From the UHGV virus genome UHGV-1666497: DNA of 14,166 nucleotides. One strand, 5' to 3'. Positions within the stretch are counted from its first letter, which is position 1. Each line of letters opens with the position of its first letter. This DNA comes from a virus. Positions 3,001 to 9,000 of this stretch are shown one piece after another. The position numbers are program-made.

Positions 3001-6000
3001 GACGACGGAAGTTGTGGGTAATCTCAGGGAAGAAACACTGAAAACTATCGGTGGTATTGATACCCGTGTTACGGGGATGAATAAGTCAACCAGTGAAGAG
3101 CTTAATAAGGTAAATGAGCGCATCACTAAGGTGGATAAAGAAGGCGGTGAAGCTTTCCTGGCCATGTGGTCAAAAAAGACCGGTGTTGAGGGAATTACTG
3201 CGGGGATCGGAATTGTTGCAGGAAAAGATGGTGAAGGGAAGCCGGTAAGCCAGGTTGCAATTTCTGCGTCACAGCTGTTTGTCTTTGACCCGAATAATCC
3301 GGATAACACCGCCTATCCGTTTGCGGTCTCTGGTGGAAAAGTTGTTATTCCCAAAGCGATGATTTATGACGCGGTGATTGAAACACTGGTGTCGCGGAAG
3401 GTTGTGGCAGATGAAGTAAAAGCCGGGGTAAGTATCACGTCGCCTGTTATCCGGAGTGCTGTTATTCAGAACGGGAACTTTCAGGTTGATTCTCAGGGTA
3501 ACCTGAATATTGGTGGCCTTTTTAGTGTTACGTCGCAGGGGCAACTGACAATTCGTTACTCTAATCAGAATGTTGGGCTGGTGATCCGCAATGATAAAAT
3601 TGAAGTTTATGACCAGAACGGACGCCTGGCTGTTCGCATAGGCAGGTTAAGCTGAGCCGGAGGCTGACATTGGCAGAATATGGTTTTGCAATATACAACA
3701 GAAACAATGTTAATGTTACGGGCGTGCTTACTCCCATATTTTTCCTGGACAGGTTTACGGCGGAGTCGGGATCAAAAACGTATACGAATAAACCAGAAGG
3801 GAAAACATTGCAGGCAGTCTGTTCATTATTTCCGTGGAATAATGTATTTAAGGACCGGAAAGTACCGAAGATAACCATTAATGGCAATACGGTGACATGG
3901 TCGAATCTTGAGCAGGGGATGGGGTCATATATTTATACATTCTGGGGGTGAGTTGTATGTATGGTTTAAGCATTACGAAACCAGATGGCAGCTTGTGGAT
4001 AAGCCCGGGGTTTACGCCTCAGTGTCTGATCAATAAGGGAACTATTCCGGCGACTGAGAAGGCTTTTTTTAAAACATCAATCCCGTCAGGAAAAAGTTGT
4101 TTTTTCTTTATCAGAACAGAGAAAAAGGCCGATGTCATGTACACACATGAACAGATTGATGGATATCATGCCTTAAGGCTTCATCAAATTGTCAGGGGAA
4201 CGAATCCTGGTGTTACGACTGTTTATGCTTTTGCGAATATGGTTACTCAACCTTCTGAGTATGGTATTGCCATGTATAACCCGTCGGGTGAGATGATTTA
4301 CCATGGCGAAATGATGCTGCTTGACGCGAAGTTAATACCAGTTGATATCAAGTTTGAGAAGGATCTTGGATATCCATGCGCAATTATGCCTGCACTGGTT
4401 GGGTATTATAACTGGCAGCGTACACCTTATGACCGACCGATTTACACCACATCCACTGGTGCTACAGGAAATAAAATATATTCCTGTGAGCATTATTCCG
4501 GTGGTGCAACATGGGATATCCGAAAGCCGTATATAGATAAAGTTCTGGTTATTAATTCCTCAATATATGATTAGCGTAAGAAAAACTTTAATAGTGTAAA
4601 ACGAAAGCGTTCCTTTCAGACATCGCATCCTTTAATTCAGAGAAATACTTAAAATGAAAAGTATCATGAAATTTTTTGCGTGTGCAGTTCTGGTGATGAG
4701 TTGCTTAACTGCACAGGTAAATGCAGCATCAGGCGATAGTACGGTATCTCTCGGGTTTGCACACATACGCTTCCCCGGGCTGAAGGATTTTGTTAGAGAC
4801 GCGGGTGTTTATAACCGGGATACGTTCAGGAATGTTGTAAACGTAAACCATTTTAATTCATCAGCTGAATACGAAAATGCTATTGCCCGGGGGCATGACG
4901 GCACAGCCAAAAGCCCCCTGGGGATGAGCATCAGGTATCGTTACGAGATAACTGATGAACTGGGTGTTATAGCCTCTTTTACATGGGCGCGCTCCATGAC
5001 TAATGCGCAGGCATTTATTGATGTTAAGCCTTCCGATCCATCACGAGAGGTAAAAAACCCGGCAGCTTCAGCGAGAACTGATATCAGGGCTAATTACTGG
5101 AGTCTACTATCCGGTCCTTCGTGGCGGTTTAACGAATACCTCAGTGTGTATGCAATGGCTGGCATGGGGGTTGCAAAAGTCACCACTGACTTGAAAATTA
5201 ACGACAATCTTAATCATGGTGCCGGTAGTTTTTCTGAAAGTAACAGCACCAAAAAAACGTCTATTGCATGGTCTGTCGGCGCGCAATTTAACTTCAATGA
5301 AAGTGTTACTATGGACGTCACTTATGAAAGCTCAGGCTCTGGCGACTGGAAAACTGATGGTTTATTTGCAGGCATTGGCCTGAAATTCTGAGTAATACCC
5401 GACAACATGTCATAACCCGCTGTGATGGCGGGTTTTTTGTTGCCCGTGCAGGGCAAAAATCGTAGATTATGCGCGGGTGCCTTTCGGCTGATGGCTGGAG
5501 GGAGAACCTGAAGGCCTGATGTGGAAAGGCCCCGAGTCAAACATTTTGTTTAACCCGAGGCCCTAACCATCATACCTTAAGCAAGTAGAAGGTTAGCGCC
5601 TCTCCACTCAGGAGGCAAGCGCTATGTCGCAAAAATCGCTCATCACCGTCACAATTTGTATGACGGTAATCTTCACCATCTGGATGTTACACGGCTCGTT
5701 GTGTGAGTTCCGGCTGAATTTGTGGGGAGCGGAGTTTGCGGCGTTCTTACAGTGTAAGCAGTAGGAAAACCGCGACGGGGACGAAAGTCCCCGTCAACTG
5801 GTTGCTGAGGTTCAGCCGATATGGCACCCGTTTCAGGTGAGAGAATGGACGACAAAATTCTCCGGTATATGCAGCGTGTTGTGAGAAATTCCCGCAACCC
5901 TGAATTTATGAATGAAGTTAAAGACGCCTGCCTTAAAAAGCAGGCGTTTTGCTTTGAAGCGCCGGATGGTTTTCTGGTGCTGCGTTCTGTGCTCAGTGAC

Positions 6001-9000
6001 GATGGTATCCCTTATGTTCTGGTGTTACTGGGCGTGTGTACGGGGAGTAAGAGTGTTGAGCGTTATCTGCCGGAGGTGAAGACATTAACCCGCCTGGCTG
6101 GCGGACGCTGGGCCGAATTTCATACGGCAAGACGAGGATTTATCCGGCTGGGAAAACGTCTGGGCTTTGAGCGAATGCCGGATGATGAGGATGGCTTCAT
6201 GGTGTTCAGGATAGCAGTCTGACTGCCACTGTATTCATCATCGAGCGTAAACCAATTGCAATTCACATTCTGACCCTGCTCCGGCAGGGTTTTTTGTTAT
6301 CTGAGGAGCCATTATGGGCGGAAGTAAAGGTGGTGGTGATACCAAAGTAAAACCAACAGCAGCGCAAATAGCACAGGAAGAGGTGGCCTGGAAAGGGTGG
6401 CAGGATTACAAAAATATTCTCCGTCCGGCAGAAGATAACTTCATGAAAAAGGTCGATGACCTTAACAGTGAGCAGCAGTACGACAATATTGCTGGCACCA
6501 CAAATCTGGGGTATCAGAAACAGTTTGGCAAAGCACGGAAGGAGCTGGCGGGTAATCTTGCTCAGTCCGGTGTTGACCCGTCCAGTGGTCGCTTTAACGC
6601 GGTAATGAATGCGAACCAGAGTGATCAGGTAACCGGGCAGATTGACACAACCACACGGGGGCAGGTATCGCAGGCAGATAAGTATGTTGCCGGGCTACAG
6701 GATGTTGCGGCTCTCGGTTCCGGTCAGAAGGCAGATGCGTTACAGAGTTTTAACTCCCTGGCTGACAGCAGTCTGGCAAAAGCCAAATCGGATGCACAGG
6801 CGGCGTTTACGAAACAACAGGGGCGAGCTTCTCTTGTTGGCGCTGGTCTGGGAGCTGTAGGTGCGTACGCGATGCATAAGGCTGGCGGTAACGGAGGTGG
6901 TGGCGGCGCTAAAACGCCAGGCACCGGCGCTAATGCTATTCAGCATCAGGCTCAGAACTGGAGACTGTAATTATGGAGTATGGCAAATACGAAACTCTCG
7001 CAAGGGCTGGTTATTCAGGCGCAGCCCGCCCACAGGGTGACTGGCAGACATCCGCCGCGCTGACACGCCAGCAATACGACGACTGGCGAACCAGATATTT
7101 GCCCCGCGTGGCAAGGCTGGCTGACCTTGGTGAGAACAACAGCCTGATGAATGCACAGCTTGCCCGGGTAGGTGGCCTTGCCACTTCCAGTCTCCGTACA
7201 GCGCAGATGGCACAGGATAACCAGATGGCGAGATACGGGGTAAACCGTCCGGATAATCCCAACAGTAACACGCTGGGTTTACGTAATGCACTGGCAATTG
7301 CTGGCGCGAAAAATGGTATACGGGAAGCAGAGCAGGATCGCCAGATGAACATACTGACTGGTGCTTCTGCACCTGCAAGACAGCAACTGAGTGTTGGTGG
7401 ACAACTGGTGTCAGGGTAAGGGGAACGATATGGGATACGGTTTACTGGATATTGCGAATCAGTCACGTCGAGAGGCATTACAGGGAATAAGTGACGCCGA
7501 CAGGCGACGTGAAGAAATTGAGGCTGCTAACAAGCAGATGGCGGCGCAACAGAAAGCGCAGAACAAGCAGAATATCGGTACGGGCATTGGTACGGGGGCG
7601 GCTATGGGCGCTGCCGTTGGTGGTCTCCCCGGTGCGGCTATTGGTGCAGTCATCGGTGGCCTTGCTGGTTCTTTGTTTTAAGGAGTGGTGAATGAGCGGA
7701 TTTGCACAGGGGTTACTTGCCGGATTCAGCACCGTTGACCAGGCCATGACCCGTCGTAAGGAGCTTGGTCTGCGTGAAGCACAGCTTGCTCAACAACAGA
7801 AAAATAACGAGCGCGATTTTGAATTTGCGCAGTCGCAGTTTGAGCATCGAAAGGAAAATGATCAGCGTACATATGATCTTAATGTCAAAAATGCCGATCG
7901 TGAATATGCGCTGAAAGAGAGGGAACACGCCGCAGCGCAGAATTACCGGAATGCGTCACTTGGCATTTCTCAGCAGAGGCTGCAACTGGAAAAATACAAC
8001 CAGCGACGGCTTGAGTATAACGATATGATTGCCCACAGCCAGCCATTAATGACAGCGCTTGGAAAAGCAATTGATGCTGGCGATCAGGAGGCTGCAATGC
8101 GTATTTACGGGCAGTTACCAAAGGGACATCCATTAACTCTTATGTCAAGTGAAGGCTATGCAGCGAAAGCGGGTCAGGCCGTGAACAACCTGCAAAAAAT
8201 CTTTGATGACAAGCCGGACAGGGCGATCGCTTCACTCAATACCCCGGAAAGTCTTGATGCGCTTTCTGGTGTGTTTGCCCCGGAACTGCAACAGCGTATT
8301 GGCATGCCCGATTCAACCGGGAAAAAGACGATAAAAGAGGCCAGGATTGGCAGTATCGTACCGGCGCAGCAGGAAGGGTACGTACTTATTGGCCTTGATC
8401 TCACATACAGCGATGGCTCCACCGCGCATAAACCTGTAACAGAATACGGCAGTGCACATCCTGATGATCAAACCGTGCTGGCGGTGCCTGTTGATAAGGC
8501 TGTTGAGCTTGTCAGGGATCGCAGTAAATTCGCGGAAATTTCGAAAAATTTCGGTTATTTCACGCCGAAGCAGGAGGGGCTTTCTCTGAAAGATATTCAG
8601 AAAGAAGCCAGCCAGGTAGCAGCGGAAGCGATCAAGAACGGCGGTAATGCTCAGGCTGCGAGGGATGAATTTTTAGCTGCGCATGGTTTACCGGAATATC
8701 AGCAGAAAATTCAGCAACAGAAATTTGAACAGCTTTTACAGAAGGGGCAGACCTGGGCGGAGGGCGATCCGGTCAAACTGGAGTTTGTCAAAGCGACTGC
8801 CGCCAATATGCCAGCCTTGCTGGAACCGGGGCGTGAAAAGGAACTGGAAATTTGGTACCAGAATCACCTCCGGGATAAAAAAGCCGAACAGGAAAAAGCG
8901 AAGAATTATAGCGCTGCTGCATCAGCCGAAGAGATCAGAGGCTGGATGAAGTAAAGTTACGCGGCAGTAACGCGCTCCCCGTTAATATCGTTCACTTACG

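Follow-up and report, generated by a model that had tools for sequence, protein, structure and literature searches.

The virus genome UHGV-1666497 raises the question of whether a small gene wedged between a hok-like toxin gene and a block of virion genes is accessory cargo or a part of the core phage genome, and what its product might do. The stretch analysed here (14,166 nucleotides, hereafter the window; coordinates are counted from its first letter and refer to the + strand unless stated otherwise) contains this gene as an annotated open reading frame (ORF) at 5821-6222, which starts with ATG and encodes 133 amino acids, as originally predicted from the sequence alone. The same prediction described it as an autonomous moron, insulated by hairpins on both sides, with a possible defence or exclusion function. 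The results presented below lead to a different answer, namely that this is very likely a core late gene, not a moron, and that its product has a GNAT fold. The fuller reading, in which this core gene is translated from an internal ATG at 5845 and its product is functionally tied to the ejection proteins, is given slightly better than an even chance; the functional tie, taken by itself, is somewhat more probable.

The 1-kb region around the ORF is 97-98.6% identical to many short-tailed Shiga toxin (Stx)-converting phages (Sepvirinae; e.g., PhiR12_3, GER2, Lyz12581Vzw and Stx2a phages). At least 90% identity to the ORF is found in 186 phage records, and the gene is present in 419 of 5426 complete Escherichia coli genomes. 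It corresponds to H0145 of VT2-Sakai, L0129 of 933W, vb_24B_43 of phi24B and ORF75 (ECs1237) of Sp5, the latter being listed with a length of 133 amino acids in the supplement of PMC5155283. Deposited records label the product "hypothetical protein", a literature search for L0129 found no papers, and ECs1237 turned up in a single CGH paper. A profile match assigns the product to PHROG 610, so that the original statement that it has no recognisable family holds for searches of Pfam, NCBIfam, PADLOC and the PDB sequences but not for PHROGs.

In the window, two tail genes (567 and 422 amino acids) are followed by genes of 93 and 208 amino acids, a gene for an Ail/Lom-family outer-membrane protein, hok, the gene in question, genes of 218, 148, 96 and 420 amino acids, and a giant ORF that runs off the window. 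Mapping of 12 proteins from the window onto each of the 94 gene-bearing loci (about half of which are near-identical Stx phages, so that the loci are not independent) places it at the same syntenic position in 94 of 94, with a homologue of ORF76 following it in 93; in 22 loci, the gap between these two genes is below 30 nucleotides, down to a 5-nucleotide overlap. The homologues in Yersinia, Pectobacterium, Chania, Salmonella and a second E. coli lineage all have the tail-tip genes on one side and, on the other, four small genes followed by a polyvalent protein of 2,500-2,800 amino acids. Three distant metagenomic phages, in which the protein is 17-23% identical, retain the same six-gene block, with an 8-nucleotide overlap or a 2-nucleotide gap. 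The conserved order is thus tail nozzle/tip genes, the ORF75 gene, ORF76-ORF77-ORF78 (glycine zipper)-ORF79, and the giant polyvalent protein. The G+C content of the gene (0.508) is that of the core genes (0.50-0.55), compared with 0.415-0.455 in the neighbouring o93, o208 and lom.

The surroundings of the gene do vary. Upstream, lom and hok are found in the Stx phages (51 loci), a YadA-like adhesin gene in some phages, and a different hok in Salmonella; in the hok-less E. coli prophage L011, a reverse-oriented Fic/Phd toxin-antitoxin module lies between the gene and the terminator discussed below; and spacers of ~225-250 nucleotides are found in Yersinia-type phages. The flank insertions, which also include an IS21 element, are located at 4654-5835 in the window and at 187-1398, 7446-8047 and 8308-10559 in loci L007, L011 and L065, respectively; the inserted YadA-like trimeric autotransporter adhesin (403 amino acids) is mislabelled "terminase large subunit" in PQ600364. 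Judged from these comparisons, the flanks on both sides are a moron insertion hot spot, whereas the gene itself is ancestral.

The two hairpins thought to insulate the gene belong to its neighbours. The downstream element, predicted as a canonical terminator at 6273-6297, is indeed an intrinsic terminator located before the ORF76 homologue (6272-6297, with a stem at 6272-6291 and a T-run to 6297; -16.5 kcal/mol, z -3.8). It is limited to the E. coli lineage and is missing where the genes are 1-18 nucleotides apart or overlap. In L011, it stands directly before ORF76, past the inserted Fic/Phd cassette; because this cassette lies between the ORF and the terminator, the latter is assigned to the ORF76 side and travels with the upstream region of ORF76, not with the ORF. 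The upstream hairpin (5774-5795), described as a perfect 8-bp GC hairpin, is also real, with a perfect stem that in fact comprises 9 bp (GACGGGGAC at 5774-5782 and GTCCCCGTC at 5787-5795) and a GAAA loop; it lies directly past the hok stop codon, in the 3' untranslated region of the hok mRNA. The extended hairpin has a folding energy of -23.6 kcal/mol (z -5.2), and none of 200 shuffled sequences was as stable. However stable, it has no U-tract on the + strand, where the next sequence is CAACUGGUUGC, and a terminator scan calls it terminator-like on the - strand only; therefore, it does not qualify as an intrinsic terminator of rightward transcription. Instead of insulating the ORF from upstream, it forms part of the internal structure of the hok 3' untranslated region.

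The hypothesis that the gene is an autonomous, insulated prophage moron, serving lysogen defence or superinfection exclusion possibly together with the hok toxin, would account for the good terminator that follows it in the E. coli lineage and for its location among true morons (lom and hok). Moreover, there is no terminator between the hok promoter and the gene, so that read-through from hok could express it in lysogens, and CMAT clones covering hok and the 5' part of the gene reacted with anti-lysogen serum (PMC3342100). These points are set against a position that is fixed in every lineage examined, including phages that lack hok or lom and those with overlapping neighbours, a core-like G+C content, an upstream hairpin that is part of hok, and a genuine terminator that separates hok from the gene in Salmonella. 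A scan for sigma-70-like promoters, which is insensitive and also misses those of hok and sok, detected none in the interval from hok to the ORF. Models of defence systems (PADLOC) give no match at E <= 1 for the product or its neighbours, and no evidence of a defence or exclusion function was found. Synteny has already largely refuted the moron hypothesis, which keeps only a very small probability.

The neighbouring moron, a hok/sok type I toxin-antitoxin cassette (5475-5835), is separate from the ORF but bears on its annotated start. The hok ORF (5624-5764) matches Pfam HOK_GEF with an E value of 4e-8 and NCBIfam HokA with an E value of 9e-10, the latter under the cutoff; the Rfam sok/hok-leader model matches 5475-5635 with 42 bits (E 7e-8), under the gathering score. 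Generally, hok mRNAs fold back through tac/fbi pairing between their 5' and 3' ends. Accordingly placed candidates are present here, a tac, GGGUGCCUUUCGGCUGA, at the 5' end of the hok mRNA (5475-5491) and a complementary fold-back inhibition (fbi) element, UCAGCCGAUAUGGCACCC, at 5812-5829. In the minimum free energy fold of 5475-5832, the ends of which were chosen by the analyst, GGGUGCC...CGGCUGA (5475-5491) pairs with UCAGCCG...GGCACCC (5812-5829) through 7 + 8 bp (-158.5 kcal/mol, z -7.1). The annotated ATG at 5821 falls within this fold-back element. The Salmonella relative L009 has a different hok in this position, whose 5' and 3' ends are likewise complementary but differ in sequence; a genuine terminator (6960-6990) lies between hok and the homologue of the ORF. 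Unlike in L009, no intrinsic terminator is found between hok and the ORF in the window, and hok transcripts may, on this sequence, run into the ORF, up to the hairpin at ~5956 described below or to the terminator ending at 6297. Two candidates were dropped: assignment of the whole of 5808-5835 to the hok cassette, given that the hok-less L011 keeps a diverged copy of it and only the complementarity is specific to hok; and a mok-like ORF overlapping hok, none of at least 20 amino acids being found. As a separate observation, the published 20-nucleotide RNA 24B_1 of phi24B (45711-45692; PMC4426718, PMC10732415) maps to the orthologous positions 5531-5552 on the - strand of the window, antisense to the hok mRNA leader (5475-5635), where the Sok antitoxin RNA would be encoded. 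The reported ~80-nucleotide precursor and predicted -10 box, CGCTAACCT, would suit a Sok-like RNA; the two papers make no mention of hok, sok or RNase III (PMC4426718, PMC10732415). One possibility is that 24B_1 is a piece of Sok or of a duplex between hok and Sok.

Several independent lines of comparison bear on where translation of the gene begins. The ATG at 5821 has GAGG (5807-5810) 10 nucleotides upstream, whereas the internal ATG at 5845 is preceded, at a distance of 4 nucleotides, by AGGTGA (5835-5840). The good Shine-Dalgarno sequence of the original prediction fits the internal start better than the annotated one. The alignment with the PHROG 610 profile opens at residue 9 of the 133-residue product, and the homologues outside E. 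coli are all 119-125 amino acids long and begin at or near the equivalent of M9. In phiSTEC1589-type phages, the sequence directly upstream of the ORF is replaced by a YadA-like adhesin gene and homology to the window sets in precisely at GGTGAGAG (5836), GTG replacing the ATG at 5845; the AGGTGA Shine-Dalgarno is kept across the homology breakpoint in phiSTEC1589. The deposited annotation of phage P32 already uses the start at 5845, with AGGTGA as the ribosome-binding site. Finally, residues 1-7 of the 133-residue product are disordered in the structural model, with a predicted local distance difference test (pLDDT) score below 50. A caveat comes from the hok-less prophage L011, which has a diverged copy of 5808-5835 that includes the upstream ATG and in which the complementarity is broken (GGTACCT versus GGCACCC). 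Given the PHROG 610 start, the lengths of the homologues, the phiSTEC1589 breakpoint, the P32 annotation and the disorder of residues 1-7, the start at 5845 is favoured, and the likely true coding sequence, with a good degree of probability, is 5845-6222, encoding 125 amino acids, a PHROG 610 protein with a minimal GNAT fold. The 8-codon N-terminal extension MAPVSGER (5821-5844), confined to the E. coli lineage and overlapping the hok fold-back element, is probably not translated.

The ratio of nonsynonymous to synonymous substitution rates is 0.06-0.07 in unsaturated pairs and 0.1-0.28 in distant pairs. A profile search of 1.84 billion representative sequences identifies 214 clusters (E <= 1e-3), nearly all of stand-alone proteins of 115-140 amino acids. 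Both measures mark the ORF as a genuine protein-coding gene under strong constraint. Within it, a terminator scan detects a terminator-like hairpin at 5921-5956 (RNAfold -19.4 kcal/mol, z -3.3), with an 11-bp stem (5921-5931 and 5940-5950; core ACGCCUGC and GCAGGCGU) and a U-tract, UUUUGCUUU, at 5947-5955. The hairpin overlaps the codons for D-A-C-L-K-K-Q-A-F-C-F. Comparison of 12 lineage representatives with less than 85% protein identity, in which synonymous sites are saturated elsewhere, shows that 7 of 8 conserved columns in the hairpin use a single codon, compared with 0 of 27 in the rest of the gene (Fisher p 1.2e-6). This synonymous freeze spans E. coli, Salmonella, Yersinia, Pectobacterium, Chania and other lineages; very distant homologues lack the hairpin. 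The excess of single-codon columns thus indicates selection at the nucleotide level. The element resembles an intrinsic terminator or attenuator and may be an internal terminator, an attenuator or the 3' end of a small RNA; it may even be the real "insulator" ahead of the ejection-protein genes. An alternative-frame ORF at 5912-6079, reported as a CMAT antigen in an earlier study, was considered and dropped, the synonymous freeze spanning only ~30 nucleotides.

The same ~30 frozen nucleotides could be taken to mean that the frame is kept mainly for an overlapping cis-acting RNA or DNA element and that the protein is unimportant. The nucleotide-level constraint, however, extends over 8-10 codons only, with saturated synonymous change and substitution ratios of 0.06-0.2 in the rest of the gene; the fold is predicted very confidently; and in distant homologues the protein is retained whereas the hairpin is not. 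The substitution ratios and the fold together refute this explanation, and its chances are minimal.

The predicted structure, which is of high confidence, is a minimal GNAT (acyl-CoA N-acyltransferase) domain with the topology α1-α2-β2-β3-β4-α3-β5-α4-β6-β7; the fold-level hallmarks of GNATs, a mixed α/β architecture with a splayed β4/β5 pair, are present in the model. The earlier suggestion of a GNAT-like fold, made as a loose guess, is supported by this prediction. Searches with the product against Pfam, NCBIfam and PADLOC give no match, Pfam searches with 81 family members yield scattered noise only, and PDB sequence searches with the single sequence and two profiles detect nothing or only designed repeat proteins. 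The best conserved polar feature of the family is a basic motif, T-x-R-K-G-F-x-R, on the β5-α4 segment, which by alignment with other GNATs is taken to flank the coenzyme A (CoA) cleft; this motif suits some ligand-binding function.

Published experiments on phi24B and Sp5 help to define the role of the gene. The virion proteome of phi24B includes gp51, gp50, an 86-amino-acid protein, gp48 and gp47, the homologues of ORF76-80; none of the proteins listed comes from an ORF ending near 46380, and none of the peptides belongs to the ORF75 homologue (bioRxiv 10.64898/2026.04.10.717836), although phi24B carries the gene at 45981-46382. In Sp5, the in-frame deletion mutant of ORF75 is outside the nine essential and two impaired mutants, whereas deletion of ORF76 markedly reduces infectivity and ORF79 and ORF80 are essential (PMC5155283). 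The profile is that of a non-structural, late-operon gene that is dispensable in the laboratory, ancient, and tightly linked, often with translational coupling, to the genes for ejection proteins. This combination of a non-virion, dispensable, ancient and tightly linked gene suggests an accessory factor that acts on ejection proteins in the producing cell.

Under this hypothesis, the product would be made with the late proteins and would stay out of the virion while all products of the downstream block are packaged. Its targets in the producing cell would be the ejection proteins encoded next to it, on which it would act either by acyl or acetyl transfer to one of them or by chaperoning their incorporation, and its action would tune infectivity or an anti-host function, with particle assembly proceeding without it. 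In the lysogen, the terminator at 6272-6297 and the intragenic hairpin would stop transcription that is not antiterminated, and Q-modified late transcription would read through both elements, by analogy with the regulation of lambdoid late genes. The prime candidate target is the adjacent ORF76 protein (encoded at 6314-6970, 218 amino acids, PHROG 611), which comes first among the four small proteins inside the virion and typically begins with a Gly-rich sequence (MGG...). Its N-terminus is proposed as a substrate because MG(G/K)GG is found in 8 of 9 lineages checked, including one VGKGGG, that of the Pectobacterium homologue, which is called with a GTG start; in most lineages, (S/T)-x-E-V-K-E-T follows the Gly-rich sequence (window 6314-6340; L003, L005, L009, L011, L013, L096 and L097). 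Modification by acyl transfer is slightly favoured over chaperoning, which is a close rival; catalytic acyl transfer onto an ejection protein is, in itself, a tentative proposal with odds well below even. In the phi24B proteome, the ORF76 homologue is represented by no N-terminal or acetylated peptides, a neutral result, given that the expected tryptic peptides are too short to be detected.

Several observations weigh against an enzymatic function or, more broadly, against the proposed link to ejection proteins. Pfam, PDB and profile searches revealed no sequence-level relationship to any GNAT family. The β4-α3 loop, as judged from alignments and the secondary structure of the model, consists of four residues (TGSK) in the product; in all 24 close and 81 distant members it is just as short and contains no GxG, and the pyrophosphate-binding motif Q/R-x-x-G-x-G/A is missing throughout the family. 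An hhalign comparison of the family profile with an E. coli RimI sequence gives a probability of 0.45% and covers motif B only; what is presumably the catalytic tyrosine of RimI aligns with Gly111 of the product. Among the 81 diverse members, near-invariance is limited, the start Met aside, to one Ala and one Pro, and there is no conserved polar catalytic residue. One distant ORF76 homologue (L095) starts with MNSGTTNEVKETE, not MG, and in one prophage an IS21 element (IstA/IstB) cuts the gene after residue 81. The absence of the product from virions comes from a single proteome, that of phi24B. Deletion of ORF75 in Sp5 has no reported phenotype on K-12 (PMC5155283), so that any effect on ORF76 is not required there. 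Finally, anti-lysogen serum recognised a CMAT clone that overlaps with hok and the 5' third of the gene (PMC3342100), and accordingly some expression of the gene in lysogen cultures is possible.

The loss of the motif and the lack of polar invariants fit a non-catalytic GNAT-like scaffold equally well. Such a protein would be a chaperone or packaging factor that, in the infected cell, binds at least one of the ORF76-80 ejection proteins, assists their loading into procapsids and is then released, with no acyl transfer. The fixed position of the gene and its translational coupling with ORF76 are compatible with this possibility, as are the failure to find the product in virions in which all its partners are packaged, and the loss of the canonical CoA loop and of any invariant polar residue in the wider family. 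Sp5 lacking ORF75, however, still plaques and lysogenises, whereas mutants lacking ORF79 or ORF80 fail and the ORF76 mutant is impaired (PMC5155283); hence any chaperone role is dispensable on K-12. The basic motif T-x-R-K-G-F-x-R next to the presumed CoA cleft would also suit ligand binding. A pure scaffold is a serious but distinctly less than even possibility.

A third possibility is that the link to the ejection genes is positional only and that the product is a small phage GNAT directed at the host, acting late in infection on a host protein, an aminoacyl-tRNA or another host molecule, in the manner of AcrVA5 acting on Cas12a. Expression from the late virion block would be odd for an anti-defence protein unless it were packaged, and the product was not found in virions; motif A is missing, whereas AcrVA5 is canonical; and no PADLOC or other anti-defence annotation was found. 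This host-directed function is considered improbable. Comparably unlikely is a bolder combination in which the product is an active acyltransferase that modifies an ejection protein before packaging, or a late AcrVA5-like anti-defence enzyme, and the intragenic terminator silences transcription in the lysogen. One candidate reaction is N-acylation of the Gly-rich N-terminus of the ORF76 protein once Met has been removed. If this were true, the acylated ORF76 protein would be the phage equivalent of the N-myristoylated proteins that eukaryotic viruses use for membrane penetration, and the frozen hairpin would be a conserved internal terminator that silences the ejection-protein genes in lysogens.

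The other genes of the ejection block show several features of their own. PHROG 611 (ORF76) is annotated as "unknown function", and the ORF76 protein also has a weak match to a "virion structural protein" PHROG. In one Stx-type prophage (L023, IMGVR_UViG_2617270976_000004, ~7283-7313), the ORF75 gene is directly followed by the ORF77 homologue and ORF76 is absent, apparently through natural loss of a gene that Sp5 requires for full infectivity. The gene for the small glycine-zipper protein (7391-7681; PHROG 594, with a match to Pfam Gly-zipper_YMGG just under the cutoff) probably starts at ATG 7430 and not at GTG 7391, given that the PHROG alignment opens at residue 14. This protein is labelled "bacteriocin" in phage P32, and the authors of the phi24B proteome set aside "a homolog of a bacteriocin" as a contaminant (bioRxiv 10.64898/2026.04.10.717836), which is probably the glycine-zipper protein of the conserved packaged block. 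The giant ORF (9040-14139, running off the end of the window) encodes more than 1,699 amino acids here and 2,790-2,811 in relatives. It belongs to the phage "polyvalent protein" type, with LPD5, LPD1, MuF_C and LPD38 domains and a zincin-like HEWFH motif in the translation. The giant protein is abundant in phi24B virions yet invisible by cryo-electron microscopy (bioRxiv 10.64898/2026.04.10.717836) and is essential in Sp5 (PMC5155283).

Most late genes of the short-tailed Stx phages, which disseminate Shiga toxin genes, lack an assigned function. A conserved GNAT-fold component would provide a concrete starting point for testing how injected proteins, among them the polyvalent protein of ~2,800 residues, are prepared or modified. 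The family, with its 214 clusters and no Pfam model, is missed by curated libraries, and the analysis tells core genes apart from morons at a hot spot of moron insertion. Two cis elements also matter for annotation, namely the hok fold-back element that covers the annotated start and the intragenic terminator-like hairpin that appears to be under nucleotide-level selection.

Lambdoid late-operon morons (lom and bor of lambda; here lom, hok/sok, the YadA-like adhesin and Fic/Phd) share with the gene the location in the late operon, and in the E. coli lineage the gene is flanked by hairpins and has true morons as neighbours. Such morons, however, are sporadic, often deviate in composition and have their own promoter and terminator, whereas this gene has a fixed position in every lineage examined, core-like G+C content and no detectable promoter, and in lineages other than E. 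coli it also lacks its own terminator. The nearest known kind of protein is the GNAT superfamily, especially the small protein N-alpha-acetyltransferases (Naa20, Naa50, Ard1 and RimI), from which the product differs in the absence of β1, in the β4-α3 loop cut to four residues without Q/R-x-x-G-x-G/A, in having no tyrosine at the RimI position, in lacking Pfam or PDB sequence matches even with profiles, and in being encoded in a phage ejection-protein block. AcrVA5, a mini-GNAT anti-CRISPR protein that acetylates Cas12a (PDB 6iuf), is 15% identical to the product. It is encoded in an anti-defence locus, whereas the product is encoded by a core gene of a virion module in which no link to CRISPR was seen; moreover, AcrVA5 keeps the canonical acetyl-CoA loop that is missing in this family. 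The hit lists contain nothing similar to Mom of phage Mu, although no search was aimed at it. Mom is a GNAT-fold DNA-modifying protein with a degenerate acetyl-CoA site and a different chemistry, and thus a precedent for phage proteins that retain the fold after losing canonical acetyl-CoA binding; it is about twice as long as the product, is encoded at the end of a late operon under special regulation, and acts on DNA.

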